64,000 nucleotides of DNA from an uncultured Solirubrobacterales bacterium (lineage in GTDB: Bacteria > Actinomycetota > Thermoleophilia > Solirubrobacterales > 70-9). The number at the start of each line of letters is the position of its first letter. Position 1 is the first letter of the stretch. Location: NCBI GenBank assembly GCA_963816785.1, contig CAWFLL010000003.1, positions 11,889 to 75,888 on the forward strand, in the 5' to 3' direction. Position numbers and translations under genes: made by a program. Positions 5,469 through 61,928 of this stretch are shown here, piece by piece. The notes under the pieces are model-generated. The model had not been told where the DNA came from. It was given only the letters and a program-made list of their open reading frames with translations, and did no database searches.

Positions 5469-5523
5469 CACGCAGCGGCCGGGTAGGCTCTCGGCGAGCG
5501 GAGCGAAGCAGAGTGCCGATTTC

Positions 5524-10802: not shown

Positions 10803-11713
10803 CCGCGTTTTTTCGCGACGACCTTGAACCGGTAGGTCGCCGGGGAGGAGTCGAGGTCCCCCTGATGCTTGGCGCGGACCCGGAATGTGTGGGGGCCGAG
10901 CGCGAGGCGCTTGGTCGTGAACGGGGAGGTGCACTTCTTGTAGGGCTTGCCGTCCAGCTTGCATTGGAAGGTCGCCGAATCCTCGTTGGAGCGGAAGCGG
11001 AAGGTCGGCGTGCGGTCGGTGGTCTTCTTCGCCGGCTTGCCCTTGAGGATGGTGTTCGGCCCGCCTTTGCCGCCCTGGCGGCCGCCCCCGCCCCCGCCGC
11101 CGGATGAGCCGCAGGCGCGCTCGGCCGGCGCGACCGAGTTGGGGCGAGGTTCGGGGAAGACGGCTGAGAAGTCGACGGCGCTGTTGTTGCGGTCGTCGCT
11201 GAGCTCGAGCAGGGTCGCGCAGCCAGGGGCGATCGTGCGGCGCAGGGCCTGCCCGTCGGGGATTCCTCCAGGTGCGGCCGGGGAGCCGGCGTTGGAGGGG
11301 AGGGGACCGGAGAAGCTGCCCCAGGAGACGCAGTCGAGGCTCTCCCAGCAGGCCGCCCCCCCTTCAGGTTTTAGGAGGTTCGCCGCCATGCTGTCGTCAG
11401 GGACGACGCCAAAGCGGGCGGCGGCGGCCGCGGTCGCCATCAGGAAGGTCATCTGGTTCTGGCCGTTTTTGACGTCGGCATCGAAGGGCTCGGTCCCGGT
11501 TTTTTCGCCCGTGGCGTTGTAGAAGGTGACGGTGTGGCCGGCGATGAACTCCTGGCCGGGGGAATAGGCCTGGAACTCGACGTATTCGGCGTCCGCGTTG
11601 GCCGAGTCGCCGGCGAACACCTCGCGGATGCTGACTTCATGGAAGGTGGCCGCCGCCGAGCTCGGGATCAGTGCCGTCGCCGCGACGATGCCAAACAACA
11701 GCCGTAGCCTCAT
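10799..11713 (-). CDS. Secreted protein: LTD-like N-terminal domain plus one C-terminal Ig-like module
   Basis: Start at ATG 11713 inside ORF 10799..12193 (MRLRLLFGIVAATALIPSSAAA signal peptide). HEVSIREVFAG...AEYVEFQ resembles lamin-tail-type domains (tentative). C-terminal module TPTFRFRS..ATFQCKLDGKPYKKC...GPHTFRVRA. The ATG overlaps the stop of the upstream paralogue (ATGA). Confidence 0.7.
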   Translation of the reverse strand: MRLRLLFGIVAATALIPSSAAATFHEVSIREVFAGDSANADAEYVEFQAYSPGQEFIAGHTVTFYNATGEKTGTEPFDADVKNGQNQMTFLMATAAAAARFGVVPDDSMAANLLKPEGGAACWESLDCVSWGSFSGPLPSNAGSPAAPGGIPDGQALRRTIAPGCATLLELSDDRNNSAVDFSAVFPEPRPNSVAPAERACGSSGGGGGGGRQGGKGGPNTILKGKPAKKTTDRTPTFRFRSNEDSATFQCKLDGKPYKKCTSPFTTKRLALGPHTFRVRAKHQGDLDSSPATYRFKVVAKKRG

Positions 11714-37711: not shown

Positions 37712-38393
37712 CTAGGCCTGGCTACGCGCCAAGCGGTCCAGCAGCTCGGCGACGGCGCCGGGATCCTCGACCATCACGAAGTGGCCACCCTGGAGTTCGA
37801 TCGGGTCGATGCCGAGCAGCTCGCGGGCCATGAAGCGCTCGAATGCTGGCTCGAAGAGCTCGTCGTCGGCTGCGTACACCAGCGCGGACGGCACGTCGGG
37901 GTGCTCCCGTAGCGGGTAGTCGTCGGGCGGCATCGCCATCGGACGCAGGTGCTGCGCCAGCGCGCGCGCTCTCTCAGGCGGCAGCCGCGCATACATCACC
38001 TCGATGGCGGACCTCGGGGTCCCACACCGTGGTGCCGTCCGGACGGGCGGGCGGGAAATGGGATGCCCTCCCGGAACGCGGCCGGCGCCCCGGGCGGCGG
38101 CTCAAGGTCCCCATCCGCGGGCAGAGGTAGACGAGTAGCGAGACCGGCCGGGCGACCGCCACCAGCGGCCCAAGCGCCGAGCTCTGCGAGTGAGCTACGA
38201 CGACCACTGCGCCGTCCGCTTCCTCGAGCGCCTCGATCGCCGGGCGAACGCGCTGCTCGTATCCGGCGGTGGGATCGTGAAGCGGGAGGTCGGGGGCGGT
38301 CGTGTTGTGCCCGAGCGCTTCGAGCCGCTCCGTCACCGGCTCCCAGCAGAGCGGGTCGTGCCAGGCGCCGTGCAGCATGCCGAAGGTAGCCAC
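37712..38393 (-). pseudogene. Alpha/beta hydrolase, frameshifted (two breaks)
   Basis: N-terminal part MATFGMLHGAWHDP...VVVVAHSQSS (nucleophile elbow) is in ORF 37974..38393. The C-terminal part ...VYAADDELF...LQGGHFVMVEDP is in ORF 37712..37999. The middle reads in a third frame. Confidence 0.7.
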
Positions 38394-39922: not shown

Positions 39923-41818
39923 ATGGGCTCATCTCCACCCGAGGGCGGGAACCAGCGTCGCCATCACCTGGATGCGATTCGCGTCTCGGCGATTCTCCTG
40001 CTGATCCCGTACCACGCGGCCCGGTATATCCAGAAGGGCCTCGGGGAAAACAGGGCCGTCGATGCCGCGGTCTGGTTCCTCCATACCTGGCACATGCCCC
40101 TGTTCTTCGCGATCTCGGGGTTCCTCGCCGCCAGTGCCCTGCGAAGGTCTACCGCCGCCGGGCAGGTTCGCTCCCGGCTTCGACGGCTGGGCGTGCCTCT
40201 GGTCATCGGGATGCTGACGGTGGTGCCATTGGCCAACTTCTTCGTGATCGAGGCGGCGGCCATCTGGCCGCGTGAACAGAAGGTCCCGGCCAAGCGGGAA
40301 CTTACCTCGGCCACGTCTTCAACCTGACGCCTCGGCACCTCTGGTTCATTGCCTACCTGCTGGTGATCTCGATGCTCGCGATCGGGGTCTGGCTGGCGAT
40401 CCAGCGGTATCCGGGGGTCGGGGCGACGATCAACCGCGGCTTTCGCACCCTGATGAGGTCATGGTGGGGGATACCGGCCCTGGCCTCGCTCAGCGCCCTG
40501 ATTCTGATCACGAAGTCCGGGTGGGTCGCAGGCGGGACCATGTCGAACTCGTTGATGCCCGTCCCGACCCTGCTCGCGTACTTCAGCCTCTTCTTCCTCT
40601 TCGGCTGGCTGCTCAGCGGCCAAGACGGCCTTATCGAAGTGCTCAAGCGGGGGGCCTGGCTGAGGTTCGCGGCGGGACTCTTGATCGCGGTTCCCGCCTT
40701 CTCCCTCTTCTACCTCAACACCGACTTCACCGGGAACGTCGGCACAGCGGGAATCCTGGCCGGAAATGGCCAACTGAGGCTCTTCGGCCTGTTCGCGGTC
40801 GGCCTCCTCTGCTGGCTGATGCTGTTTGGCGTCTGGGGCCTTCTCGCCCGCTACGTGCAGAAGGAGTCGCGCGTTCTGCGCTATCTCGCGGATGCGAGCT
40901 TCTGGATCTATCTCGTCCACATCCCCTTCCTCGTCGCGATGCAGAGCTCGCTGGCCAACACCCACCTCGAGGTCGCGCTCCGCTACACCCTGGCCGTCAC
41001 CGGCACCTTGGCTCTGGCGGCCGGGAGCTACTCACTGGTGCAGGCGGGTCGTAGGCTTTGGGTCAGGGTTGCGCGACCCCGCAGGGCGAGGCGGTTCCGC
41101 ACCACCGGGGCAGTGGCAGGGATCCTCGCCCTGAGCGTCACATTTGTCCTGCTGCTCGCGACGCCCGCTGGGGCAGCCCGCAGCCGCACCTCGCCGCCAC
41201 CGCAGCTCTTGCTCATCCATGGGGGCTCCTTCCTCTACGAAGATCCGCTCTTCGAGGCGAGGACCGAAGCAGCGGCGATCGCCGCCGGCTTCGTTCCGCA
41301 CTACTCTGAGCTATCCGCTCGACGATCTGCCCGGAGCCGTTCTCGCCGCGAGGGAAGAAGCGATCCAGCTGCGCGCACGGTTCGGCCACGACGACGTGTA
41401 CGCGTACGGGTCCTCTGCCGGCGGGACGCTCGCGGCGCTGCTCGCCGGCGATGGCCTCGTCTCCGCCGCGGTTGCAAAGGCGGCACCCTCTGACCTGGTC
41501 GGCTGGGAGTGGCCGCTCAGCACCTTCGGCCCTGACTACTACGAACGGATCGACGCCGACCCTGCGGCGCGCCGACGGCTCTCGCCCCTGCGCCGCCCGA
41601 TGAGGCGGCCGCTGCTCGTCGTGCAGGGCCGCGCCGATCGGGTCGTGCCGCTAGGTATGAGCGAGGCCTTCGCCGCCAAGTTTCGCCGCGTCAACCTCTG
41701 GGTCGTTCCAGGGGGCCACGCGACAGACCAGGTGCGCCCGTGGGTGACGCGGCGGGCGATGCGATGGCTGGCCCGGACCGCCAACCGCGTGGCGGCGGCG
41801 GCCGTGCCCTCAAACTGA
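39923..41818 (+). pseudogene. Acyltransferase-3 (OafA/OpgC-like membrane) module followed by an alpha/beta-hydrolase module, two frameshifts
   Basis: HHLDAIRVSAILLLIPYH...WHMPLFFAISG (frame of 39923). Break near 40295. HLWFIAYLL...FWIYLVHIPF (frame of 40363). No in-frame stop before LLLIHGGS. Break near 41303. Then YAYGSSAGG...VVQGRADRVVP...GGH (frame of 41144). It is unresolved whether this is a fusion or two genes. Confidence 0.65.
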
Positions 41819-41850: not shown

Positions 41851-41959
41851 TGCCGGAGGAGGGACTCGAACCCCCGACACGCGGATTTTGATCGCGCCCG
41901 GCGAGTGCGGGGGAGTGCGGGCTGTATCCGTGGCCTCCGCGGACACCCTGCTGACACCC
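41851..41959 (-). repeat. tRNA-3'-half-like repeat, copy 1 (short form, 109 nt)
   Basis: The minus strand reads GGGTGTCAGCAGGGTGTCCGCGGAGGCCACGGATACAGCCCGCA...GCGCGATCAAAATCCGCGTGTCGGGGGTTCGAGTCCCTCCTCCGGCA. Confidence 0.85.
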
Positions 41960-42145
41960 CCGAGTCGGGAAGGGGAGTCCGCCCCGTCTGGGGCGCAGAC
42001 CGCCAGCTCCACCGGCGCTGCTCAAACCCGCCGCCGCCGACGGGCCATGGTTGAGTTCTTCCGTCGCGCGGCCGCGTCCGCGCAGCCGACTAACTAAGCC
42101 GTCCGCCAGCGGCCGTACGACATCCACCCGGTCGGTCGTGCCGCA

Positions 42146-43773: not shown

Positions 43774-43872
43774 GCCCGGAGGAGGGACTCGAACCCCCGA
43801 CACGCGGATCATGATCGCCCCCGCGCGTTGCGGGCTGTATCCGTGGCTTCCGCTGACACCCTGCTGACACCC
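43774..43872 (-). repeat. tRNA-3'-half-like repeat, copy 2 (short form, 99 nt)
   Basis: Same ends as copy 1. The acceptor-like end has one extra C (GCCCGGAGG on the + strand). Confidence 0.85.
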
Positions 43873-44094
43873 GCCTGGCGACAAAGGAAAGGCTATAACC
43901 GGGCGCTCGACCTCGTCGCCATCGCGTCCACGACCGAAGCCAATCTGTGCGCGAGAGAACGGCGCCAGCCAGCCCCATGCCTTGACACTCGGTGAGCGGC
44001 CGATATAGGGTCGCAATCAGTGCATGATCAGGATTGGGTTCCTTTCGGGACTTGATCGCCACTCCTCGCCAGACGCCCTGAGATAGAAGAGACG

Positions 44095-44853
44095 ATGCTC
44101 AGAAAGTTGGACCCTCGTCGCTCCCCAGGGACATTTGTCGCAGTAATTGCCTTGATAGCTGCGCTAGGGGGGACGGCTATCGCCGCTGGCGGCCTGACCG
44201 GCACCCAGAAGAAGCAGGTGCGGAAGATCGCGACAAAGGTCTTCAACGGCAGGATCGGAGGGGCCTCCGTCGCCCACGCGGGTACCGCCGACACGGCGAC
44301 CAAAGCGACGACAGCCGACACGGCGGCCAAAGCGACCACGGCAACGACTGCGACCAAAGCGACCACGGCAACGACTGCGACCAGCGCCGATTCCGCCGAT
44401 ACCGCCGACAACGCGACCAACGCCACCAACGCCACCAACGCCGGCAGCCTCGGCGGGATTCCGGCGAGCAGCTATCAGCGGGCTTGCCAACCTGGCGCGA
44501 TCGCCGCCCACGTCTACGTGAAAGGCTCGGCGGCCTTCTCCGCCACCTACACCAGCACCACCCCGCCGCTGCAGGACCCGTTCAACTGCACCGGCGCCGC
44601 GACCAAAGCGCAGGTCAAACGCACCGGGACGGGCGTCTACCTGGTGGACTTCCCTGGAGTGGACCCCGTCACCCACCTGGTCGCCACCGGGACCGCGACG
44701 GTCGATTCGGTGGGCACCCAGCATCCCGAGGACAACGTCACCTACAAGCTGGTGTTCGACGCGGGGCTCGGCCGCACCGTCTACCAGGTCGAGATCGCGA
44801 ACGGTGCAGGGACCCTCTTGGATCGGGAGTTCTCGTTCAGCGTGGACGCCTAA
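44095..44853 (+). CDS. Secreted protein with Thr/Ala tandem repeats and a tail-fibre-like C-terminal domain
   Basis: Hydrophobic N-terminus FVAVIALIAALGGTAIAAG, then GLTGTQKKQVRKIATKV, ADTATKATT repeats, NATNATNATNAGSLGGIPASSY. Confidence 0.6.
   Translation: MLRKLDPRRSPGTFVAVIALIAALGGTAIAAGGLTGTQKKQVRKIATKVFNGRIGGASVAHAGTADTATKATTADTAAKATTATTATKATTATTATSADSADTADNATNATNATNAGSLGGIPASSYQRACQPGAIAAHVYVKGSAAFSATYTSTTPPLQDPFNCTGAATKAQVKRTGTGVYLVDFPGVDPVTHLVATGTATVDSVGTQHPEDNVTYKLVFDAGLGRTVYQVEIANGAGTLLDREFSFSVDA
44287..44385 (+). repeat. In-frame 27-nt tandem repeat (about 3.6 units)
   Basis: Units start at 44287, 44314, 44341 and 44368 (partial) and encode ADTATKATT/ADTAAKATT/ATTATKATT. A 9-nt AACGCCACC repeat follows at about 44417-44441. 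Confidence 0.85.
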
Positions 44854-44867
44854 GAACACTCCTTGAG

Positions 44868-44947
44868 TGCCGGAGGAGGGACTCGAACCCCCGACACGCG
44901 GATGTCGGGCTGTATCCGTGGCTTCCGCTGGCACCCTGCGGCAGGGT
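44868..44947 (-). repeat. tRNA-3'-half-like repeat, copy 3 (shortest, 80 nt)
   Basis: The core is identical. Only a 10-nt loop lies between CGGAT and ATCCG. One of the two 9-mer direct repeats is missing. It starts 14 nt after the stop of 44095..44853. Confidence 0.85.
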
Positions 44948-45090
44948 CGAGATGTCCGCGATACGGCTATAGAGTCCCTGACGGTGAGGCGCTTTTTGTT
45001 GGCCCTAGTTCCCGTGTTCGGCCTGCTCGTAGTCGTTGTACTGAAGGCGGTCGGCGAGGATACTCAAGTGACGGGCGAGCGACAACAAAC

Positions 45091-45543: not shown

Positions 45544-45728
45544 ACGACCGAGAGGGATTTGAGGCGGAGTGGGTGAGGCTCCTTCCCGAACGCCTCGAGG
45601 TTGGTGCCCTGGACCGTTCCGACGATTGCCCGAGCCACGACCGCTTTGTTCTCCCAGGAGGCCGGATCCCCCTCCCGAATAGGATGCTCGCCCTTGCGCT
45701 GGCACCCTGGCAACTTCCCCCGACCACG

Positions 45729-45750
45729 AAAAAACCCTGCCTGAGCGGGG
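45729..45750 (-). terminator. Intrinsic terminator just downstream of repeat copy 4
   Basis: Minus strand CCCCGC-TCAG-GCAGGG (one C-A mismatch) followed by TTTTTT. Nearly identical to the terminator after copy 7. Confidence 0.6.
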
Positions 45751-45760
45751 CTTTTGTCGA

Positions 45761-45933
45761 TGCCGGAGGAGGGACTCGAACCCCCGACACGCGAATTATG
45801 ATCGCGCCCGGCGAGTGCAAGGGAGTGCGGCCTGGTGCGGGTTTTCGGCGCTAAGGCGCCAGATCAGGCGTCGGCACGGGGTCGGGGGTTGCGGGCTGAA
45901 TCCGTGGCTTCCGCTGACACCCTGCTGGCACCC
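45761..45933 (-). repeat. tRNA-3'-half-like repeat, copy 4 (long form, 173 nt)
   Basis: Minus strand GGGTGCCAGCAGGGTGTCAGCGGAAGCCACGGATTCAGCCCGCA...TTAGCGCC...GCGCGATCATAATTCGCGTGTCGGGGGTTCGAGTCCCTCCTCCGGCA. A partial extra remnant (CTTGCGCTGGCACCCTGGCAAC) lies at 45684-45712. Confidence 0.85.
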
Positions 45934-46276
45934 TGGCGGGCGAGCGCCCCTGGTGGTCCCGGATGCCGGCGCGGCCCGAGGTGCCGAAAAGCGCTCAGGG
46001 GGCCGGAACGCCCCTGAGCGGCGTGGAGCCGACCGTTTTCGAGATGACCGCGCCGAAGCTAGTCCACCTACGATCAAAGTCAAGAAGCCGGGCTTCCTCG
46101 ACGTGCTGCCGTCACAGCGTTACCGCCCAAACCCGCGCGAAACGGCGCCTGACTCTGGATTCCGATGCCGGTGAAGCCGGTGGTTTCACGGGAGCCTGGA
46201 TGTGGTCGGACGTGGTGGATGGAAAGCAGCCCCTTAATGTTGTCGTTGAGTGGTGTTGTGAGACTCTCCGGGCCAG

Positions 46277-50369: not shown

Positions 50370-50539
50370 TGCCGGAGGAGGGACTCGAACCCGACACGCG
50401 GATTATGATCGCGCCCCGGCGTATCCGTGGAGTGCGTGCTGTTACGGATTTCTCCCGCTAGGAGGCGATTTCAGACGTCAGCCGGGCCTTTCGATTGCGT
50501 GCTGTATCCGTGGCTTCCGCTGACACCCAGCTGACACCC
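50370..50539 (-). repeat. tRNA-3'-half-like repeat, copy 5 (long form, 170 nt; T-stem has a 2-nt deletion)
   Basis: The + strand starts TGCCGGAGGAGGGACTCGAACCCGACACGCGGATT and ends CCGCTGACACCCAGCTGACACCC. Internal CCTAGCGGG hairpin and two CAGCACGCA motifs. Confidence 0.85.
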
Positions 50540-50666
50540 ATAGCGGAGAAGCAGAGGGGCTACAAAGCTAAGCTGCACGGGGCCAGGCCCTAGCATTCAG
50601 GGCACGAAGCTGGAGCCCGAGACCCGGTATGCCCGTGCTGGCGACATTCGAGTTGCCTATCAGGTT

Positions 50667-52000: not shown

Positions 52001-52174
52001 TGCCGGAGGAGGGACTCGAACCCCCGACACGCGGATTTATGATCGCGCGGCGCAAATGCGGGCTGGTGGCGTGGTGTTGCGGGCTTTGGGCGCTAATTGG
52101 CGGATTTCGGCTCCGAAACGGGGTTCCGAGTGCGTGCTGAATCCGTGGCTTCCGCTGACACCCTGCTGGCACCC
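52001..52174 (-). repeat. tRNA-3'-half-like repeat, copy 6 (long form, 174 nt)
   Basis: Core identical. ATTAGCGCC central motif. Distal CTGACACCC-TG-CTGGCACCC direct repeats. Confidence 0.85.
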
Positions 52175-52302
52175 TGGCGGGGTTGGACCGCCTCAAGACC
52201 CGTCCGCACCCACTCGGGCGTTCCCTGCAGAAGACGGTGCGGGAGACCACCGACGCACGCGAGGCTGAGAAATGGTGCACCTCGCCGCGCTGGGCACTCT
52301 TC

Positions 52303-52559
52303 CTACGGAACCCTGAACGTGAGACCATCGATACCGGCGATGCAGGAACCAGCTCCCGCACATGTCGGGATCGCGTCGCCGTCGCTCTGAATGACCAGGT
52401 TGGCAGCAACCGGGGCCGGTGCGCCCGCCGCCGGCATGAACAGACCCTGAGACGGGCGATAGCCAACCGGGAGGGTGAAGGCGACCGTGTCGTCGGCAGC
52501 GTTGGAAAGGTTGCCCTTGAGATGGACGACGCCGATAGATCGCCAGGATCGCGCAGCCA
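52303..52559 (-). pseudogene. Orphan C-terminal fragment of a tail-fibre-like/secreted repeat protein
   Basis: VHLKGNLSNAADDTVAFTLPVGYRPSQGLFMPAAG...IQSDGDAIPTCAGAGSCIAGIDGLTFRVP has no N-terminal part. It abuts the truncated AAA ATPase. Confidence 0.45.
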
Positions 52560-53003
52560 TGACTACGGGCGATCTGGGTGATAGCCGAAACCGCGTGGCG
52601 GCTGTCCTTTGACTTGTGGGCGTCGGTCCTGCCGTCGAGAAACTCCATCAGCGGGTCAATGACGACCAGCGCGGTTTCGGACTCGGCGACCCGCCGGCCA
52701 AGCTCGTCGGCATCCTTCGGCACCCGGAACGGCACCGGATCATCCCGTGGCCCCATCTGGAACATCGAGACGCGGGAGAGGTCGGCTCCGGCAGCGAGCA
52801 GACGTGGCTTCAGGGTGTCGCCCGGAGCGTCCTCGGTCGTCACGATGATCGCCCGACCGGGGCCGGAGAGGTCGCCGTCGAGCTTGCCTTTGCGTCAGGT
52901 CCGCAATCAGCCGGACGTAGAGCAGACCCTTGCCGATCTTCGGTCGCCCCGAAAGCGACGTGAGCTTGCCGAGAGGAATGCGATCCTGCCATGCGAACCG
53001 CAC
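52560..53003 (-). pseudogene. RepA/AAA_25-like ATPase (replicative helicase-type P-loop), frameshifted and 3'-truncated
   Basis: GTG 53003. KPVRFAWQDRIPLGKLTSLSGRPKIGKGLLYVRLIADLT (P-loop GxxxxGKG). Frame break near 52890. Then KGKLDGDLSGPGRAIIVTTEDAP...ALVVIDPLMEFL...ARSHGCAILAI. Ends abruptly near 52560. Confidence 0.6.
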
Positions 53004-53052
53004 CGGCTTGGCGACGATCCTCGTGAAATCCGTGAGGGTCGAACCTCCGGGG

Positions 53053-53808
53053 TCAGGCTCGGTCGGTTCGGCAGGCTTCCGCGAGCGGCACTAGATCCGA
53101 GAGCGACTTCCCCGCCGCCAGGTGGTCGGACAGATCCTTGCCCTCTGCGGGTTCCAGAACCGTGACCTTCGCCGCGATCCCGTCAAGCGAAGCGGCGACT
53201 TCAGCGGCGTGCGGTCGGCCCCGCTTATCGGCGTCGCTGACGACCGCGACCTTCGCCCCTCGGAGCGTCTCCGAATACTCCGATCGCCACTTGCCAGCGC
53301 CACCGGGGTTACAGGTGGCAACCTTCCCTCGCTTCTCGGCGGCGTGAACGTCCTTCTCGCCCTCGCAGACGAGGACCGGCTTTCCGGCCTCGACGGCGGC
53401 GAGAACCTCCGGGAGCCGGTACAGAACGCGCCGAACGCCTTTCAGGTTCCAGATCCAACCGCCCGATCCGTCAGGTCGGCGCTGCCGAAAATCCTTCGGC
53501 CAGAACCTGACGACTTGATACAGAGGCTTCCCGGCCTCGTCGGTGTAGTCGTATTCGGCGTCGATCGGAGCCGACCCGTTGCCGCTGTCGGCGAACAGAT
53601 CCCGTGTCGAAAGTCCGATCGCTCCGGCAACTTGCTCGATCGAGCAACCGCCAAAGCACTTCGCGAGGGTCCGTCCGTCCTGGCCGATCGCGATCGAGAG
53701 GGAGGGGGTCCGGTCGTCATGGGCCTCAACCGGACACCGGGCCATCCAGCGGTCAGGGCCGGTCGGATTGACGGCATCGAGACGGGCGAGGAAATCCTCG
53801 ATCCTCAT
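53053..53808 (-). CDS. DnaG-like DNA primase (CHC2 zinc finger + Toprim), phage/plasmid type
   Basis: Start ATG 53808 (MRIEDFLARL; ATGA overlap with the upstream ORF stop). CPVEAHDDRTPSLSI...KCFGGC zinc finger. Toprim VLVCEGEKDVHAA...VAVVSDADKRGRPHA. Confidence 0.8.
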   Translation of the reverse strand: MRIEDFLARLDAVNPTGPDRWMARCPVEAHDDRTPSLSIAIGQDGRTLAKCFGGCSIEQVAGAIGLSTRDLFADSGNGSAPIDAEYDYTDEAGKPLYQVVRFWPKDFRQRRPDGSGGWIWNLKGVRRVLYRLPEVLAAVEAGKPVLVCEGEKDVHAAEKRGKVATCNPGGAGKWRSEYSETLRGAKVAVVSDADKRGRPHAAEVAASLDGIAAKVTVLEPAEGKDLSDHLAAGKSLSDLVPLAEACRTDRA

Positions 53809-54354
53809 CGGCTCCGCTCGCGCTCGACGGAGCGTCCAAGCTCGGCCCAAATCCGCGCCTGTATCGGTGCCGGGAGGAGTCCGAAAAGACGCAGACGTTC
53901 GGGGCCGGAAAAGCCCGCCGTCAGGTCGGCGAAATCGTCAAAGGTTTGGAGCCACCGCGAAGGTGGCTCGGGTAGGTCGGGGTCTGAGCCGGGGCCTGCG
54001 CGGGAGCCGCGACGCTTTGCGCCCGACCTTGCCCGCTGGCAGGAATGTCTCTCACGCGGGGAGACGTGTGGCCTGATCGCGTCGCAGGGGTGAGACTCGC
54101 GGCGACGGGCAATGACCAAATCCGCCCGTTTGTTCTGGCCCCGGCGGCGTGCAATCTCCCGCTGCGGTTTGGGCGAAAGGCTGGCGGTCGCGCAATGCCC
54201 GTTCGACCTCGTTATGGATCTGGCGGGGGTTCTCGCCGCGTTCAATGCGACGGATTGCGCGGGTGAGGATTCGGACCGCCGAGCGGTCCCCCACGTCGGC
54301 GGCGTGGCCCCGTCGCGAGAGCAGCGATTTACGTATCGCCTCGCGTTGCCCCAT
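53805..54354 (-). pseudogene. Unresolved coding region upstream of the primase (probably one frameshifted small gene)
   Basis: ATG 54354 opens MGQREAIRKSLLSRRGHAADVGDRSAVRILTRAIRRIERGENPRQIHNEVERAL (stop 54052). A different frame ends ...LQTFDDFADLTAGFSGPERLRLFGLLPAPIQARIWAELGRSVERERSR* with its stop overlapping the primase ATG. Confidence 0.3.
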
Positions 54355-54672
54355 CCGTACGCGCCCTTGACTTCTCCACCTGCATTTCCTTTCACGGAGA
54401 CTGTTCCGTGTGCTTGGTGAAGCGTAGCCCCTCTGTGTGCCGTGATCTAGGGCAGAGTCAAAGCAAAACGCCGCTCTCAGGGCAGAGAACGGCGCTTGCC
54501 AGGAAATGCCGATGCGTTCACGTACGGCCAGAACTGAGGCTACGGGACACCGGGGACAAGCTCTGGCGCGTTTCCCACCGGAGGCCAAAACCCGGACATA
54601 GCTCCGATGGGCCGGCAGCCCGAGTAAGTCCGGCGACGCCCAATCGACGTCGTTAGGCAGACTGCGGGCATC

Positions 54673-55171
54673 GTGGCTTCGCCCAGCGACCTCACATACG
54701 ACATCTGGACCGACGGCGCCTGCGCCCACAAGACCGGCGGCGCCGGTGGGTACGCGGCAGTACTGGTCGCCCGCCGTTCCGATGGCAGCATCGCCAAGCA
54801 GTGGGAGGTCTCCGGCGGCGACTTCGAAACCACGAACAACCGGATGGAGCTGATGGCGGTCATCACCGGATTGCGCGCCTTGCCCGCGCCCGCGCGCGTG
54901 TGCATCCACATCGACTCCACCTACGTGATGAAGAACTTCCAGGGACTGGCTTGAGCGCTGGCAAGGCAATGGCTGGCGGACGGCGGACGGGAAGCCGGTG
55001 AAGAACCGCGACCTGTGGGAGCAGCTGTCCACCGAGGTTGCCCGTCGCGAGGTGGAATGGGTGAAGGTCGCCGGTCACACCGGGGTCGAGTTGAACGAGC
55101 GCGCGGACCAACTCGCCTGCGCCCAACGGGACGCCTACGCCGAGCGGAGCCGTCGGCGCCCCGTGGAGTAG
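54673..55171 (+). pseudogene. rnhA: Ribonuclease HI with one frameshift
   Basis: IWTDGACAHKTGGAGGYAAVL...TTNNRMELMAVITGL...IHIDSTYVMKNFQG, then a break near 54945. The continuation WLERWQGNGWRTADGKPVKNRDLWEQL...WVKVAGHTGVELNERADQLA ends at TAG 55169-55171. Confidence 0.8.
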
Positions 55172-55396
55172 CTCCTCCCCCGACAGGGGCAGTAGAGACC
55201 CGACATTCTGCCACTCGTCATTCCATACCTTCCACTCGGAAAGGCGCGTTTGCGGCCAAACTCTATGAGCGGGCCATATATATGTACGCAGCGCCCACGC
55301 CCCCGAACCACCCCCCGCCCCCCTCACGGCCCAGATCGTCGCTGGCGATTCGCAGCCGGCGGCGACCGAAGGTCGCAAGCTCAATCGTTCGCGGGG

Positions 55397-55507
55397 GGAG
55401 GAGGCCGGGTCCGAAGGGCGGGAGGGGTTTCGACATGCGGATTACGTGTCCGCTCGCGGTCCCAATCCGTGCCTGAAAACGGGGGGGTGACAACGGGGTG
55501 ACAACGG
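55397..55507 (-). repeat. Degenerate eighth copy of the tRNA-3'-half-like repeat
   Basis: The + strand has GGAGGAGG...TTTCGACATGCGGATTACG...CAATCCGTGCC...GGTGACAAC-GG-GGTGACAAC. Same order and orientation as the other copies, but the T-arm is eroded. Confidence 0.4.
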
Positions 55508-55844
55508 CCCGACCGGAGATTGGCGCGCCGCACCCGGCCAGCGAAATCCCTTTCGGATGTGGGGCGCGATCCGGCTCGCCTGCAAGGGGACACGACCAGC
55601 GCACCGAGTCACGTCAACCTGACACGACGAGCAGCTACGGTCCGAAGCGTGGCGGAGAACCCAACGACAGGGCATCGGGCGAGCGTCGAGCGGATGTCCC
55701 ACGCCTGGGTCGCCGTCTGCGCGGACTGCCGATGGATGGGCGGCGACCACCGCCATCGCACTGCGTCTGAGCGAGAGGCCGAGATGCACCGACACGGCCA
55801 GCGGCCTCAATGGAGCATCCCGCAACACTCCCACCGCCCCTGAC

Positions 55845-57788
55845 CTAGATCCCCTCGGCTGAATCGCTCCTCGATTTCAGACTCTTCAAATAGGCGACGG
55901 TCTCGTCAACGGAGCAGATTCTCGGGACGCCCGTAGGGAACCACAGCGCGTCGTCTAAGGACCAGATGTATTCCACGCCGCCGGTACATACGAGGTATTC
56001 AACGGAGTCAATCCCCTCTGGAAGCTCGTAGTTTCGGCCCTGCGGATGGTCTTCAAGCACTCGGGCCAGCGAACGGGCCTTGTCCAGGTGCTTTTCAAGA
56101 TCCTTGCGCCGTCCGACCATTGCGCCGAATTCACCCCTGTCGATACGGAACCCATGTGAAAGGGCTTTGCACTCGACGACATACAGCGTATTTCCGATCG
56201 GTACGCCCACGTCGATCTCGCGCTCCACGGTGCCGTCCACCTTCAGACGCTTCTGTCGCTCCCATATCTCGAAGCCCGCCTCTTCCAGTCTGCCAGCGAC
56301 CTTGTCCTCAAAGTCAACAGCCTTGGCGAATCCAGCCGCTCCGTCGAGTGAGCCGACCGTACGCATTACGCCCGAAAGGGCGACCGGTAGCGATCCAAGA
56401 TCGACCGTGTAAAAACCGTCCCCTGGAACAATGATCTTGAAAGGCTGCCGATCCCACAACGAAATTTGCTCGAAATCGCTCTCGCTGTACATCCAAGCTG
56501 CGGCGGCAGCTGCGGTGGCTGAGACTGCCGACTCTTGCGTCAACTCTTCGCCGTCGCCGATCCCCTCCATCCACGATGGCAAAAAGTACGACACCTCGTC
56601 CACGAATCGGTCGAAGCTTTCATCAAGTACGGCGAAATAGCCGGTCCCGAGAATCTGGGTGGCAAACAATGGATTTTGTGTCATCGCGACCATCGTGTGC
56701 ATCCACAGGCTCCAAATAAATCCGAGCAGATGCGCCGCACGCACTCCAATTCGCTCTTCAAGCTCAGCGTCGAACAGCTGAAGAAACCCCAAAGCTCCTG
56801 CCAAGTCCCACGGGCTGAAAACGTAGTTCATCGGGTCTCTCAATCGGACCTTCCACATTCGTTCGTCCGTGGATGAGCTACGCCCCTCAATGTTGAGGGT
56901 CGGGATAAGAATGCCGGTCGTAAAATGCTCGGTCGCCTCGTCCAGCCCTTCAAAGTCGCCAAGTAGGACCGTGCCAGATGAGCTACCGAGGTCTCCGTGC
57001 GATTCGGCCCTTGCGTCCAGTGATCGCATCAGCGCCTGCTGTTCATCTGTTGCGTTTGCAAAGACTTCCTGATTTTCGATCTTCAATTCGGCCCCCTTCC
57101 CGACCCTGCGATAGCTCGCCGCGCCGCCCGAGTACGCCAGAGCCAACTCATCGAGTCTGTAGAGAGCCAATAGATCGTCGTCGGAAAGATCAGCCGGAAC
57201 CCGCCGCCCCCCAAAAGGTGTGTCCATCTCCGTGAACTCGGTGTCAAGTGGATCTGGGAGGCCATACTTCAGGATCGCGAGGGTCAGAATCCGTCTGTAT
57301 AGAAGGGTGGACCACTCTGGCATGTCTGCTTCCAACGTCACCACTGCTGGCTGGCGTCGAGTGAGATGGAGCCAGTAGGCGCGACTGTGACGACACGCGA
57401 TGCCCGCGATGCGATCCTCTATGTCGGCGAGGTAGGCATCCAGTACGGCGGCTGCCTCCCCTCCTGAAATGCCAGAGCCGACGGCACCTGCCCGCGCCTC
57501 ACGCGCTTGAACAACCGGTTCCTTTGCAAGGGCTTCGAAATCCGGGATCTCATGGATGCGTTGATTGATCCAGACAGCCACCCAATCAACCGAGATCGCG
57601 GCGGATGCTTTCCTTGCTACTTGTTCGGCAGATTCATCGGCATCCAGATGGCAGTGCTTGTACTTCTTGCCGCTACCGCAGTGGCAGGGATCATTTCTAC
57701 CTCGGTCAGTGTTCCCGTAGCGGGCGCTACCCGACAGCGGAGGCCGGTCGCGAGTGGATTGACACATCGCCGAGGCTAGGCCCCGCAC
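55845..57788 (-). CDS. SEC-C-motif protein with a large unknown middle region and a C-terminal PD-(D/E)xK (Mrr/NERD-like) nuclease-type domain
   Basis: N-terminal DPCHCGSGKKYKHCH (SEC-C zinc motif). C-terminal FEDKVAGRLEEAGFEI...EREIDVGVPIGNTLYVVECKAL (E...D...ExK). 647 aa, intact. Local GC about 52-57% versus about 70% in the core. Confidence 0.7.
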   Translation of the reverse strand: MRGLASAMCQSTRDRPPLSGSARYGNTDRGRNDPCHCGSGKKYKHCHLDADESAEQVARKASAAISVDWVAVWINQRIHEIPDFEALAKEPVVQAREARAGAVGSGISGGEAAAVLDAYLADIEDRIAGIACRHSRAYWLHLTRRQPAVVTLEADMPEWSTLLYRRILTLAILKYGLPDPLDTEFTEMDTPFGGRRVPADLSDDDLLALYRLDELALAYSGGAASYRRVGKGAELKIENQEVFANATDEQQALMRSLDARAESHGDLGSSSGTVLLGDFEGLDEATEHFTTGILIPTLNIEGRSSSTDERMWKVRLRDPMNYVFSPWDLAGALGFLQLFDAELEERIGVRAAHLLGFIWSLWMHTMVAMTQNPLFATQILGTGYFAVLDESFDRFVDEVSYFLPSWMEGIGDGEELTQESAVSATAAAAAAWMYSESDFEQISLWDRQPFKIIVPGDGFYTVDLGSLPVALSGVMRTVGSLDGAAGFAKAVDFEDKVAGRLEEAGFEIWERQKRLKVDGTVEREIDVGVPIGNTLYVVECKALSHGFRIDRGEFGAMVGRRKDLEKHLDKARSLARVLEDHPQGRNYELPEGIDSVEYLVCTGGVEYIWSLDDALWFPTGVPRICSVDETVAYLKSLKSRSDSAEGI

Positions 57789-57794
57789 CGGCGG

Positions 57795-59191
57795 CTAGGG
57801 CGGGCCGATGGAAATCTGTTTTGAGGAACTACCGGAACCTACGACCACTCTCACGGGCAGCAGGTGGCGGCGGGTGAGGAGTGCGAGCGCACGATCGTTG
57901 AGCCGCGCCAGAACTCCGCTCCGATCGTCAGCAGACAAATTGAAGCGGGCTGCCCCCAGCTTGAACCCCCGGATCAGACGGAGTTGACCCCGGCAGGTAT
58001 CAGTCGCCGATCCACCTTCGCAGGCCAGACGAACCTTGACCCATCGGCGGTGGACCCTTTTCCACTGACTATGCGGGCAGCGAGGGGCTTCGGGGTGATC
58101 CGGCCAACGATCCCCGGTTCCTTCGGAACCTGCATTGAGCAGGTGAGACCACCACCCATGCATGATCCTTCGCCCGATGCCGTGTACCAGACGTTGCCGT
58201 CGGGTCCCGAAGCGATAGCGATCGCTTCAGTGGGCTTGGGCAGTTTGATCTCAGTAATCCTCCCGTTGTTCGGGTTGATCCGACCGATCTTGCCGACCCC
58301 ATTGGTGAACCAAAGGCGGCCATCAGGCCCTGAAGTGATTGCCCCTGGATAGCTGGCACCGGGGGTCGGGTGCCCGTGCCGATACACCGGGTGGGGCAAG
58401 GGGAAGCTGGTCACTTCTCCTGAGGGAGTGATTCTCCCAATCGCCGGAGTAACGCCATCATTCAATGTGAACCAGAGGTTTCCATCCGGTCCGGTTGTGA
58501 TGCCCGAGCGCTGCTGGGTATTCGTGAGCGGAACCGGAAATGTTGTCGCCTGGCCATTGGGCGTGAAGCGGACGATCTCATCCCCATTTGTGAGCCACAG
58601 ATTGCCGTCGGGGCCAAATGTCATCGCAGGTTGGCTGACCCCCTTGCGACGTGGAATTGGCGGGAAGGTCATCTCTTCTCCGGTGGGTGTCAGGCGACCG
58701 ACAACGAGGTTGGAGGCTTCAAGCCCCCCGTTGCCTGAAAGAAGTCCAGTCGTAAACCAGAGGCTGCCGTCTGGCGCTGGGGTGAGAGCGGCGGGACTGA
58801 CTCCTGGCGTCGAATGTTCCGAAAGCTGGCCAAGCGGCGTGATCTGAGATACACCTGGTTCGCCCGTTGCGAACGAAAGAACGCCTCCCGGACCTCCAAC
58901 AATTGAGATGGGCGAGTTCGGGACAGGGAATCCCGTTATCGCACCGTCGGGCGTGATTCTGTTGATTTCACGTTCGAAGTGGCATGGACAATCAAGTCCG
59001 GATTTGCCCGGTTCCCCTGTCGAACTCCCGAACCACATGTTCCCGTCGGGGCCGGGGGCGATCGGCCCAACCTGCGAGGGAGCGCGGGGGAACTGGAACT
59101 GGGCGATCCCATCCGGCTTGGCGCTCGCATTCCCCGCCAGTACGGCCAGGGCCACGAGCGGCACAAGGGCTGTCCCGATTCTCCATTTCAT
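57795..59191 (-). pseudogene. Secreted Vgb (virginiamycin B lyase)-like beta-propeller repeat protein, one frameshift near the C-terminus
   Basis: Start ATG 59191 (MKWRIGTALVPLVALAVLAGNASA). Repeated GPDGNLWFT/GPDGNMWFG/GPDGRLWFT blades. Frame break near 58046, then VKVRLACEGGSATDTCRGQLRL... (frame of ORF 57795..58163). Low GC. Confidence 0.7.
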
Positions 59192-59304
59192 TGACCAGAC
59201 TCCCGCATGGCTCCGCTGGTGGCATGCGGCATCCACTTAGAACCACAACACGAAATCATGTTCATTGTTCCGGACGACGCCCCCCGGGAACGGTTGACCC
59301 CGAG

Positions 59305-59853
59305 CTACTCGGGATCTCCGAGGCCGTCAGGTGGCGGGGGCAATGACTCGCGGACCTCCTCCTCGATCGCGATCCCGTCCAAGATCACGCCCCGGGCTTT
59401 CAACTCCCTCTTGATCTCCTCAAAAGACCGGCGACCCACAATCTGCGTCGGCTGATCCGCGAGCAATTGGCTCTTATCGCGGTTGACCGCCGCAGCGACG
59501 ATCACGTTCCGGACACCGCCCGGCAGGTCGCGGACCGGGATTCCCTCGACCTCTCGGGCAAGCCGCTCCGTCATCGCCTCCGATACCTCTAGCTGACGAT
59601 CCGCAAGGGCGGAATGCCGGTCCGCAGCCGATGCCCGGAGCGCCGGGAGAACTTGGCTACGGACCCGTTCATATCGGGCGGCGTGGGTCTTCGATCGCCA
59701 GTAGCGCAGGGTCCGCCCGTCGATCTGCAACCCATCCTCGGCGAGCAACCTCGCCGCCTGGTCGCCGTTGCCGGAGCATTCGGCGAGACAAAGCAACGCC
59801 CGCTCGACCTCCTCATCTCCGAACGTCGGTCGGGGCTTGCCTGGTAGGGCCAC
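59305..59853 (-). CDS. Hypothetical protein with a possible N-terminal HTH (terminase-small-subunit-like, speculative)
   Basis: 182-aa ORF. NGDQAARLLAEDGLQIDGRTLRYWR looks like a helix-turn-helix. No firm family recognised. Confidence 0.4.
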   Translation of the reverse strand: MALPGKPRPTFGDEEVERALLCLAECSGNGDQAARLLAEDGLQIDGRTLRYWRSKTHAARYERVRSQVLPALRASAADRHSALADRQLEVSEAMTERLAREVEGIPVRDLPGGVRNVIVAAAVNRDKSQLLADQPTQIVGRRSFEEIKRELKARGVILDGIAIEEEVRESLPPPPDGLGDPE

Positions 59854-59926
59854 AGGCGCGTTTACCGCGGAAAGTCTCGGACTGACGGGTGCCGTTCGGG
59901 GTTCCAGCGGTTTCCAGACCTGACGC

Positions 59927-60343
59927 TCACTCGGCCCCTTCGCTGACCCGCCCCGCTACCTCGGCGTCCTGGGCGTACTCGGCTTCCTCCATCGTCTCCC
60001 GCATCACGGCGTGCCGATCGTCGTCGTTGCTCAGATCACGGTTGAGAACTCGGTCGTAGCTCTCTTTCACGTCGGGGGGGCCGGTCCCGGCTTGATCCTG
60101 CGCGAGGGCGTTTATCTCTTTCGCGGTCAGTTCGCGCCCAAGATCCCGCTCCAACCTGACCGCTTGTGCGCTGAACTCGGCTGCGTCCTGCGTGGGTTCG
60201 TCGGCCTGTTCAAGGTCGGCTGCGACTTGTCTCGCGACCAACTGGTACTCCTCGCCGTAGTCCCCGTCCAACGCTGCTTCAAGGTCGGGCAGATCCGAGA
60301 ACTCGAAAACCTCCCCGTCCATTTCGTAGGTCATGGCGCTCAT
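59927..60343 (-). CDS. Acidic hypothetical protein
   Basis: 138-aa ORF, strongly D/E-rich. Its start overlaps the stop of the upstream ORF (ATGA-type junction at 60340-60343). Confidence 0.45.
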   Translation of the reverse strand: MSAMTYEMDGEVFEFSDLPDLEAALDGDYGEEYQLVARQVAADLEQADEPTQDAAEFSAQAVRLERDLGRELTAKEINALAQDQAGTGPPDVKESYDRVLNRDLSNDDDRHAVMRETMEEAEYAQDAEVAGRVSEGAE

Positions 60344-60552
60344 GCTGCGACCTCCTCGGTCAGCGCCGCTCGTGCGGCGATCGCCTGGTCAAGATCGGTC
60401 CCGATCGTTTTCCAACGCCGCCGGCCATCCTCGCGCCAGGTGACCTCAAAGGTCCGGCCATCCTCGGAGTCCTTGAAGTAGATGCCTTCATGCCCCGGTA
60501 GCCGTTTCCGGCGTGGAGGCTCGGATGGCTTATCTGAGGGCGGGGCGATCAT
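60340..60552 (-). CDS. Small protein resembling the N-terminal arm-type DNA-binding domain of tyrosine integrases; no catalytic domain
   Basis: GHEGIYFKDSEDGRTFEVTWREDGRRRWKTIGTDLDQAIAARAAL follows the G-I/V-Y-x-R/K...G-K/R-R-x-x-K/T...EA pattern of integrase arm-binding domains (pattern recognition only). The frame stays open upstream (LRAEVASKDGQIRHLQT). Confidence 0.4.
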   Translation of the reverse strand: MIAPPSDKPSEPPRRKRLPGHEGIYFKDSEDGRTFEVTWREDGRRRWKTIGTDLDQAIAARAALTEEVAA

Positions 60553-61186
60553 CGTTTGAAGGTGTCTGATCTGGCCGTCCTTTGAGGCGACCTCCGCCCG
60601 TAGCTCGGCTGCCTCGACGGACAGGGGTGTCCCGCTCCTCTATTGCCCGTTTCGCGGCGTTTGTGGCCTCTCGTGCGCTCTGAGCCTCAGCTATGGCCGT
60701 AGCCGCCTCTCGGCTCGTCTTCTCGCCTCTCTCCCCGGCGTGTGCGAGGGCGTCCTCGACGGCGACGACGACAAGCTCGTCAAGGGTCGCGGACGGCAGC
60801 GGCGCGGGGCCATCGACTCCGAGCCGCCCGAAAAGTTCGGCCTGCGACGGCCCCACGGCGTACTCAACTCCGCTCGCGCCGACGCTGCCGTTCAGGGCGT
60901 AGAGGGCGACGATTCGCAAGTCCTCCTGCGGTCGAGCCTCGACGTACTGGGCGAAGGTTCGGAGGCTCTCGACGTGGCGCGCACCGTCGCCACCTAGCGC
61001 GGCTTCGGCGGCGTCGGCTTGGCCGCGAACATGTCCCGCGATAGCCGGAGCCAGTCCGTCGCTGCCCGCTCGTCGGTTGAGGGTCGTTTCGGCCTCGCTG
61101 GCCATGCCTCGAAGGTAGCCGGTCGCCGCACCACCACTGCGACGGTCTGGGGTTCCGGAGCGGGTCGCGAGCGGGTGCGTTGTCAC
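60530..61186 (-). CDS. Hypothetical protein (possibly continuous with 60340..60552 through a frameshift)
   Basis: 218-aa ORF. A more likely start is the internal MASEAETTLNRR. The tail becomes Arg/Gly-rich near 60620, where the neighbouring frame looks coding. Confidence 0.35.
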   Translation of the reverse strand: MTTHPLATRSGTPDRRSGGAATGYLRGMASEAETTLNRRAGSDGLAPAIAGHVRGQADAAEAALGGDGARHVESLRTFAQYVEARPQEDLRIVALYALNGSVGASGVEYAVGPSQAELFGRLGVDGPAPLPSATLDELVVVAVEDALAHAGERGEKTSREAATAIAEAQSAREATNAAKRAIEERDTPVRRGSRATGGGRLKGRPDQTPSNDDRPALR

Positions 61187-61237
61187 TTTGTTGTCACTTT
61201 GGCCTTAGTGCCGATTTCCGACACTTCTCGGAGAACG

Positions 61238-61259
61238 AAAAAACCCCGCCTGAGCGGGG
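61238..61259 (-). terminator. Intrinsic terminator 11 nt downstream of repeat copy 7
   Basis: Minus strand CCCCGC-TCAG-GCGGGG, a perfect 6-bp stem, followed by TTTTTT. Confidence 0.7.
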
Positions 61260-61270
61260 CTTTCTCTCGA

Positions 61271-61441
61271 TGCCGGAGGAGGGACTCGAACCCCCGACAC
61301 GCGGATTATGATTCTGCGCCGGGAGTTGTGGCTGTTTGCGGCTGTTCGGGGATTTCCCGCTAATCGGCGGTTTTCGCCGTTTCGGACGTCCCGCCGTTTG
61401 CGGCTGTTTGCGGGTGTTGTGTTGCCACCCCGTTGCCACCC
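61271..61441 (-). repeat. tRNA-3'-half-like repeat, copy 7 (long, divergent distal half, 171 nt)
   Basis: The core is identical to copies 1, 3 and 6. The distal direct repeats are GTTGCCACC-CC-GTTGCCACC (+ strand). Three CAGCCGCAAA motifs. ATTAGCGGG hairpin. No CGGAT partner for ATCCG. Confidence 0.85.
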
Positions 61442-61496
61442 TGGTCGCCGCCAAGCCATTCCTGTGGCGACCACAGAGGCCGTGGCTGGGGTGCGG

Positions 61497-61814
61497 TCAG
61501 CCCTCGGCCGCGTTGCGCAGCGCGTTGACTAGCAACTGCTCGGCTGGAATGCCGGTGAGGCCGTCCGGAGTGCGGTAGAGGCGGCACTTGAGGCCGTAGT
61601 CCTGGCGGTCATCGGCTTGGGGTTCAATGTCGCGGCCGTTGACGCGGATCGTGGGGGAGCCCAGGAATCGCTCGCGCTCAGCATCCTCGGGTGTCTCGAC
61701 CGACCGCAGCTCGATCTTATCTTCGAACCCCTCGCTGGCGAGCACCTCCCGCATAGCGGGAAGCATCGCCTCATAGCCCGGGCAGCCGTCGAAGTAGAGA
61801 AGCTCGACCTTCAT
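61497..61814 (-). CDS. Thioredoxin-fold small protein (DGCPG motif)
   Basis: MKVELLYFDGCPGYEAMLP...FLGSPTIRVNGRDIEP. 105 aa. Adjacent to the heavy-metal ATPase remnant. Confidence 0.6.
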   Translation of the reverse strand: MKVELLYFDGCPGYEAMLPAMREVLASEGFEDKIELRSVETPEDAERERFLGSPTIRVNGRDIEPQADDRQDYGLKCRLYRTPDGLTGIPAEQLLVNALRNAAEG

Positions 61815-61928
61815 TGCGCGGTGAGTAGCTGGCCGAAAAGGGCGCGGCCTGCGTCGGCGGCCTGGGTTCGTCGATGACTGCCGCTAGACAGCGGCTTGAC
61901 GATGCTTAGGAGTAGCGCGTTGGTGATC

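Follow-up and report, generated by a model that had tools for sequence, protein, structure and literature searches.

What are the seven related repeat units that lie, all in the same orientation on the minus strand, along 64,000 nt of DNA from an uncultured Solirubrobacterales bacterium? This stretch (contig CAWFLL010000003.1, positions 11,889 to 75,888 of the forward strand; hereafter the window, with positions counted from its first letter) holds four long copies of the unit (4, 5, 6 and 7; 175-179 nt) and three short ones (1, 2 and 3; 85-114 nt), confirming the two length classes of a preliminary description made from the sequence alone. That description proposed that at least some copies are transcription units for an RNA of roughly 190 nt with a tRNA-like 3′ domain, rather than scars of attachment (att) sites. 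Our analysis points the other way: the units are very probably attP/attR-type sites of tyrosine-integrase elements that target tRNA-Met, stacked in tandem around cargo that carries no integrase. Four things read from the sequences support this view, namely the tRNA-Met identity of the core, the linkage to integrase genes in relatives, arrays that start at tRNA-Met, and insertion polymorphism at the core. The positions of all features are collected in Table 1.

The Units End in the 3′ Half of tRNA-Met

The last 42 nt of the units, ATCATAATCCGCGTGTCGGGGGTTCGAGTCCCTCCTCCGGCA, are identical to the 3′ half found in intact tRNA-Met (CAU) genes at four of the loci collected for comparison (L002, L005, L007 and L008), and span the tRNA from position 32 in the anticodon loop to the discriminator base. 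The tRNA-like 3′ domain noticed earlier is therefore this half of tRNA-Met, which carries point changes in copies 1, 2, 4 and 5. Intact tRNA-Met genes were first met by scanning viral contigs for the tRNA-half string. The pattern occurred in five viral contigs, two of them with an intact tRNA-Met and others with a typical integrase-att layout. One of these contigs, L005, is a textbook integrated element, with tRNA-Met at one end and, at the other, an integrase gene followed by the tRNA-half repeat. The motif at the distal end of the unit had no match in IMG/VR, and a viral origin of this motif was rejected on that basis. ARAGORN reported no tRNA or tmRNA gene in the window; given this result, and as neither a 5′ acceptor strand nor a D arm is present, we also discarded a tRNA with an intron, a tRNA with a long variable arm and a tmRNA.

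The Distal Part of the Unit Encodes the Tail of a Tyrosine Integrase

Homologues were collected by an exact-pattern scan of one genome per species, with the distal end of the unit as query. The unit is present in about 20 metagenome-assembled genomes, all from Solirubrobacterales (four unrelated matches are due to chance), and in these genomes the 175-179-nt form is the norm. At L017, the ORF (open reading frame) at 4483-6075 on the minus strand encodes a tyrosine integrase of 437 residues (Pfam Phage_integrase, E = 6.5e-25). This ORF reads through the 9-nt direct repeats (9-mers) of the unit and the conserved GCGGAAGCCACGGAT, has the tail ...VYVHLLDEDLGAPLDSAPKGVSKVSAEATDTARNGKADPVADLAL and stops at the TAG of "TAGCG". 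The first ~90 nt of a full unit are thus the last ~28 codons of a tyrosine integrase gene, and the TAG conserved in "TTAGCG" serves as its stop codon. The remnant in copy 4 lies in the same frame as the L017 tail, where ...GVSKVSAEATDTARN is followed by 11 amino acids (aa) and the stop. From AEATD to TAG the frame comprises exactly 20 codons in most long units, including copies 5 and 6 of the window, and this length is kept although the 11 intervening codons vary; TAA replaces TAG in one unit. The tail of copy 7, GGNGVATQHPQTAAN..., resembles other integrase tails of the family, such as GDNKVTTGHPETAAN in L036. Two-mismatch matches to GCGGAAGCCACGGAT at ~38.6 and ~38.8 kb were considered as extra decayed units and, on reading, judged to be chance.

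When metagenomes were searched with the L017 integrase, 80 relatives were retrieved; six of them carry the tRNA-Met half, and many show a T-arm-like sequence ~68-70 nt past the stop codon. A tyrosine integrase gene adjoins the unit at L017, L031, L066, L039, L049, L075 and L099, and the integrase-linked sites share one order: the C terminus ...YVHLLDGDLGEPL, the 9-mer pair, the stop codon, ~50 nt of noncoding arm, the tRNA-Met half and a hairpin. The window holds no integrase gene, and all six of its inter-unit segments are without one. Across the collected genome loci a single unit among ~45 (L017) is linked to an integrase. In about 25 integrase-less units the integrase homology has a sharp start, either at the first 9-mer or a few codons ahead of it, L028 being the only integrase-less unit that keeps more of the gene.

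Two further observations concern the integrases. A third arm type, with GTGCACC repeats, precedes the same tRNA-Met half at L027:580, L029:6990 and L001:5997, and in L001 it stands directly behind a different integrase; therefore at least three att/integrase lineages compete for the tRNA-Met site. The window also encodes a 70-aa ORF (60340-60552, minus strand; ...GIYFKDSEDGRTFEVTWREDGRRRWKTIGTDLDQAIAARA...) near the left end of a 9.27-kb element described below, which the preliminary description had taken for an arm-domain protein. By eye it recalls the L017 N-terminal GIYKRG..YAVQYRD. As an integrase arm-binding domain it was rejected, since its best BLASTP hit against the L017 integrase (E = 0.084) is not significant and falls in the wrong region, and no match was found in Pfam, PHROGs or NCBIfam.

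Both Arms Carry Phased Direct Repeats

The 11-nt-phased pair of 9-mers is not random, with five matches in the window against 0.00 expected. The minus-strand motif CAGC(C/A)CGCA, which had also been pointed out (TGCGKGCTG on the other strand; the CAGCNCGCA motifs), is enriched as well, with eight matches against 1.7 expected. The sequence of the 9-mer is element-specific; its position, its orientation and the 11-nt spacing are kept behind intact integrases. In copy 4, the pair also codes for the G-A-S-R-V-S of the integrase tail. The phased 9-mers sit where the arm sites of lambda-type integrases sit and look like putative arm-type sites, so that the earlier suggestion to this effect is supported at the level of sequence. 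At L066 the same 9-mer (GTGTCACC) occurs on both arms, with a second pair on the far arm.

Approximately half of all units continue beyond the core into a P′ arm, which comprises a TAGAGCCAAATGCGCCGCC hairpin together with two phased repeats at 47-64 nt past the core. Hairpins occupy the same position past the tRNA half at L001, L007, L027, L066 and others. The near-identical GC-hairpin-plus-T6 sequences after copies 4 and 7 were correctly noticed in the preliminary description, which read them as private terminators of these copies. We find instead that they form part of the neighboring element's P′ arm and that similar hairpins follow many other units. Beyond copy 4, the repeat pair agrees in sequence with the 9-mer (GGGTGCCAG) that belongs to copy 3, the next unit.

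Mean pairwise identity, computed over 22 long units, is 86% in the 9-mer pair, 58% in the variable codons, 84% in the block running from GAAA to CACTCC (GAAA-CCCGCA-CCAGGCCGCA-CTCCCTTGCA), 67% in the spacer and 95% in the tRNA half, such that the block stands at 84% against 58-67% in the adjoining variable stretches. One cassette pair with cargo of 67% identity likewise retains 83-95% in the functional blocks and 43-58% in the spacers. This block-wise conservation fits what would be expected of protein-binding DNA motifs. Against the long consensus, copies 1, 2 and 3 each show one large gap (~63, ~72 and ~90 nt), the ends of which fall, in copies 1 and 2, within the internal CAGCNCGCA/CCCGCA direct repeats; the L010 unit shows the same kind of deletion as copy 1. 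The alignment indicates that each short copy arose from the 175-179-nt form by one deletion. What was previously described as a "hypervariable loop" (10-110 nt) is consequently no insert: the long form is the norm elsewhere and the short copies are deletions.

The string CAGCGGAA (45906-45914) stands just past the second 9-mer, at the same place in every type-A unit, and equals positions ~25-32 of tRNA-Met (A26, the 5′ anticodon-stem strand GCGGA and A32). A near copy, CACGGAT, follows 5 nt after it. Both strings may be additional core-type-like sites for the integrase within the arm, or they may be due to chance. As a tRNA remnant, CAGCGGAA was treated as chance or left aside, since the likeness goes no further.

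Arrays Start at tRNA-Met in Relatives and Differ at the Core

In other genomes, the units again form same-strand arrays, 0.8-6 kb apart. In CAWADG010000004.1, pieced together from four contiguous loci of the one contig (L008, L023, L026 and L011), an intact tRNA-Met stands ahead of nine units that share its strand, all within 25 kb, and at L007 a unit follows tRNA-Met after ~750 nt. The closest relatives of the window, L111 and L112, were reached via the DUF2703 protein encoded beside copy 7; a HAD-domain ORF, used with the same aim of extending the array towards tRNA-Met, had no matching record. They are 95.8% and 94.9% identical to the window, respectively, between position 64000 and a point 3 nt beyond the copy-7 core, where the similarity ends. 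The window holds here 9.27 kb that are absent from both relatives, and beyond this insertion the next cargo, a hydrolase-cyclase gene, is only 67% identical to theirs. Such presence or absence exactly at the core, relative to a 96%-identical genome, shows recent site-specific activity. The 9.27-kb element is bordered on one side by the copy-7 core with the P′ hairpin and repeat pair, and on the other by the P arm and core of copy 6. L111 has a further unit 5.3 kb upstream of its copy-7 homologue; therefore the copper-resistance operon between them is itself att-bounded, and the array extends past the window.

These observations can be assembled into the following model. Read along the minus strand, a full unit consists of a 9-mer pair inside the last ~28 integrase codons, the TAG, an arm of ~50 nt with CCGCA repeats and the 42-nt tRNA-Met half, beyond which many units continue into a P′ arm with its terminator hairpin and second phased repeat pair. 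On the lambda-type heterobivalent paradigm, the N-terminal domain of the integrase would bind the arm repeats, and its core and catalytic domains the anticodon stem-loop region. By analogy with that paradigm, strand exchange would take place within the shared tRNA segment, presumably in the anticodon loop. The tRNA 3′-half copy and terminator brought by the element would rebuild the tRNA gene, leaving the displaced chromosomal half beside the P arm of the element, and elements would stack in tandem as one after another inserted into the tRNA gene or the core of a unit already in place. All seven segments of the window have lost their integrase, and three of the units are internally deleted. 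All of the inter-unit segments of the window are flanked by att sites and carry no integrase, as is expected of cis-mobilizable elements, and the units are probably still usable as att sites.

Alternative Explanations

Several points weigh against reading the units as att sites of stacked tRNA-Met elements. No intact tRNA-Met is present in the window or in the 10 kb further upstream in L111, nor is there an integrase in those 10 kb, and the window array is therefore interpreted by homology. The P′ pair past copy 7 (GTGACAAC) differs from the P pair of copy 6 (GTGYCAGC); both pairs should belong to the same 9.27-kb element, and their mismatch therefore implies that arms may have been exchanged. 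The sharp left edge of the integrase homology at the first 9-mer is not predicted by random integrase decay. Finally, GCGGAAGCCACGGATWCAGC is invariant among the homologues in part because this string served as the search pattern. We nevertheless consider it highly improbable that the units are genes for a structured noncoding RNA of ~190 nt, with a tRNA-like 3′ domain, read from the minus strand and ending at the terminators of copies 4 and 7. Such a gene would agree with a 3′ part that could form a T arm and one half of an acceptor stem, with the hairpin-T6 terminators after two copies and with a unit conserved across many genomes at a constant 175-179 nt. Yet terminators follow just two of the seven copies and are explained as the other arm of the att site, the 5′ acceptor strand is missing, and the 5′ half is an integrase coding tail with frame and stop kept. 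A gathering search of Rfam gave no match, leading us to reject a known RNA family, ARAGORN was likewise negative for tRNA and tmRNA, and no sigma-70-like promoter was found between 41.7 and 61.6 kb. RNAalifold on the 22 long units gave a covariation term of +0.35, with compensatory changes in one of 28 pairs. The "retained stem" CGGAT/ATCCG never covaries: in the 22 homologous long units no pair is changed on both sides, the helix being invariant and hence uninformative. Its ATCCG is A38 plus part of the 3′ anticodon-stem strand of tRNA-Met, and its CGGAT lies within the integrase codons ACG GAT. The variable middle folds about as well as shuffled sequence (mean z ~ -0.3), and for the arm without the tRNA half the mean z of the minimum free energy is +0.27 (unit strand) and -0.01 (opposite strand). 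Consensus folding and z-scores thus led us to reject a structured RNA on either strand, and they give no support to the "small hairpin ending in TAGCG", the TAG of which is a stop codon.

The other two alternatives accept the att origin of the units and concern what became of them. Functionless scars of old integrations, kept because nothing removes them, would explain the lack of an integrase in the window, the deletions in the short copies, the changed tRNA halves of copies 1, 2, 4 and 5 and the many split genes in the neighborhood. We regard this explanation as doubtful, because the insertion polymorphism at the core relative to a 96%-identical genome points to recent activity, the arm motifs are conserved block-wise and the sharp left edge is unlike random decay. 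This same edge, together with the large excess of integrase-less units (a single linked unit among ~45), is the reason why we keep open a reading that is less likely still, an integron-like capture in which a lambda-type integrase encoded elsewhere would move integrase-less cassettes in trans, each with a portable minimal attP, tRNA-Met being the entry site. The portable module would measure 175-250 bp and comprise the 9-mer pair, the integrase-tail remnant, the CCGCA repeats and the tRNA-Met half, with or without a P′ arm. This reading is in line with the cassette pair that retains its blocks around diverged cargo, with the abrupt fall of identity from 95.8% to 67% exactly at the core, that is, a mosaic at core boundaries, and with cargo that looks adaptive and mostly consists of one to few genes. 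Mobility in trans is, however, drawn from analogy, and the same general picture has already been described as cis-mobilizable elements plus accretion (PMC3146451). Moreover, the block pattern could come from active integrase-bearing ancestors or from gene conversion, three of the seven window units are deleted for arm motifs and several cores are mutated, which looks like decay, and cargo genes occur in either orientation. Nor does the integrase belong to the integron type: the L017 protein scores 52 bits with the NCBIfam integron-integrase model, the cut-off of which is 265.

Comparison with Known Systems

Genomic islands of this general kind are already known and ordinary. Among lambda-type heterobivalent tyrosine integrases, those of pSAM2 and mycobacteriophage L5 use the 3′ half of a tRNA gene as their target, tRNA-Pro and tRNA-Gly, respectively. 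As in att sites of the pSAM2/L5 type, the core of the units reproduces the tRNA sequence between the anticodon loop and the 3′ end, the P arm adjoins the integrase gene, phased direct repeats stand on both arms and the element brings a terminator for the rebuilt tRNA gene. Unlike in those sites, much of the P arm, including the 9-mer pair (putative sites), lies here inside the 3′ coding end of the integrase, and most genomic copies are without a linked integrase.

A close parallel is found in Dehalococcoides, where 15 of the tandem ssrA islands are without integration modules and have been read as cis-mobilizable elements that arose by accretion (PMC3146451). As there, tandem islands lie downstream of one small-RNA gene and are bounded by a repeat of its 3′ end, many are without an integration module and the cargo is strain-specific. 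The Dehalococcoides islands depend on a serine integrase, a 20-bp repeat and tmRNA as the target (PMC3146451), whereas here we find a tyrosine recombinase, a 175-250-bp arm-plus-core module and tRNA-Met. In Prochlorococcus, islands anchored at tRNA genes are strewn with partial tRNAs and degraded elements (10.1101/2020.12.28.424599). These tycheposons are likewise tyrosine-recombinase elements at tRNA genes, in which newer insertions push older ones deeper and the cargo is adaptive (10.1101/2020.12.28.424599). The present units differ from them in phylum and integrase lineage, in keeping the whole arm rather than just a partial tRNA, and in bounding integrase-less segments that are short (0.9-9 kb) and densely packed. 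With integron attC cassettes, the array shares short cargo segments that each end in a recombination site, sites that greatly outnumber integrases, and sites with conserved ends and a variable middle. In contrast to attC, the units contain no foldable palindrome (neither strand is more stable than shuffled sequence), their integrase is not of the integron type, the site holds a tRNA half plus arm repeats and the cargo lies in both orientations.

A false lead is thereby removed: the repeat is not a new tRNA-like RNA family and is explained by a well-understood recombination mechanism. In the poorly studied soil Solirubrobacterales, the region downstream of tRNA-Met is hypervariable, with cargo in short att-bounded segments that, in the window and its closest relative, include lipid-metabolism genes, hydrolases and a copper-resistance operon. 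The unit offers a practical marker for delimiting such islands in metagenome-assembled genomes. If the segments were indeed movable in trans, they would form a tRNA-anchored analogue of gene-cassette capture, an integron-like capture and shuffling in Solirubrobacterales, and a portable attP would explain both the sharp left edge and the large excess of units over integrase genes.

Table 1. Repeat units, att-site parts and the integrase-less element in the window
Feature	Position	Strand	Description
Copy 1	41851..41964	-	Short; one deletion, of 63 nt, from one CAGCNCGCA repeat to another; the array's final unit inside the window
Copy 2	43774..43877	-	Short; single ~72-nt deletion between CCCGCA repeats; acceptor end mutated
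Copy 3	44868..44952	-	Shortest; ~90-nt deletion; single 9-mer remaining
P′ direct-repeat pair beyond copy 4	45699..45714	-	GTTGCCAG-GGTGCCAG, ~50 nt past the core
GC hairpin + T6 directly past copy-4 core	45729..45754	-	Terminator portion of the next element's P′ arm
Copy 4, whole unit	45761..45938	-	Long form
Copy 4, core	45761..45802	-	tRNA-Met 3′-half copy carrying a single C>T change, matching tRNA-Met of L002, L005, L007 and L008; contains the anticodon loop AUCAUAA, 3′ anticodon-stem strand, variable loop, T arm, 3′ acceptor strand and discriminator A
Copy 4, noncoding P arm	45803..45846	-	GAAA-CCCGCA-CCAGGCCGCA-CTCCCTTGCA block (CCGCA-type direct repeats) and short variable spacer
Copy 4, integrase 3′ coding remnant	45847..45913	-	...AEATDSARNPRPRADA, then stop; usual TAG stop position of the family at TTAGCG
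Copy 4, P-arm 9-mer pair	45914..45933	-	GGGTGCCAG-CA-GGGTGTCAG, 11-nt period; putative arm-type integrase sites
Copy 5	50370..50544	-	Long; tail frame AEATDTARNRKARLTSEIAS, then stop; 2-nt deletion in the T stem
Copy 6	52001..52179	-	Long; tail frame AEATDSARTRNPVSEPKSAN, then stop; right-hand att site of the 9.27-kb element
Integrase-less element, ~9.27 kb	52001..61270	-	Delimited by the copy-7 and copy-6 cores; missing in the closest relatives
P′ direct-repeat pair of the 9.27-kb element	61179..61200	-	AAAGTGACAAC, twice
GC hairpin + T6 past copy-7 core	61238..61263	-	P′ terminator of the 9.27-kb element
Copy 7	61271..61446	-	Second sequence type; 9-mers GGGTGGCAA(C), twice; tail GGNGVATQHPQTAANGGTSETAKTAD ending at TAG

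Cargo and Neighboring Genes

The array cargo mostly consists of one to few genes per segment, placed in both orientations, and includes WS/DGAT, a beta-lactamase-family protein, a hydrolase-cyclase and, in L111, the copper-resistance operon. The 9.27-kb element encodes a protein of 647 aa with a SEC-C motif and a Vgb-lyase-like/beta-propeller protein. Both genes lie in a stretch of the element (55000-59500) with a GC content of 57-60% against ~68%, which is consistent with a recent foreign origin. Directly upstream of copy 6, the minus-strand ORF 52193-52843 is the remnant of a replication (primase-polymerase) gene; its match is to the C-terminal part of phrog_10729, a phage DNA polymerase/primase family (E = 6.5e-9).

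Upstream of copy 7 (61497-64000; L111:6138-10318), genes for a CsoR-like repressor, a YHS/cyclase protein, a P-type ATPase and the DUF2703 protein make up the copper-resistance operon, which in L111 is flanked by two att units and so is itself a cassette. The P-type ATPase of the window is split into at least three ORFs (63342-63851, 62959-63345 and 61929-62975). Frameshifts also split an abhydrolase gene and the gene of an Acyl_transf_3 protein (37712-38393, 39923-41493 and, for the ATPase, 61929-63851). The split genes could reflect real pseudogenization in an old island or long-read indel errors, the related genomes being "MFD" long-read metagenome assemblies; if indel errors are involved, some of the broken tail frames of the units may be artefacts too.

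Two repeats of other kinds were noticed in the window. A tandem repeat with a period of ~33-36 nt (GTCGCAGTCGTTGCCGTGGTCGCTTTG...) occupies 44300-44450, inside the plus-strand cargo ORF 44095-44853, which encodes a probable secreted protein of unknown family. Between 10800 and 12800, the direct repeats D4, D5 and D7 follow one another ~920 nt apart with 68-80% identity, suggesting repeated domains or tandem paralogues in the minus-strand ORF or ORFs at ~10799-12193.

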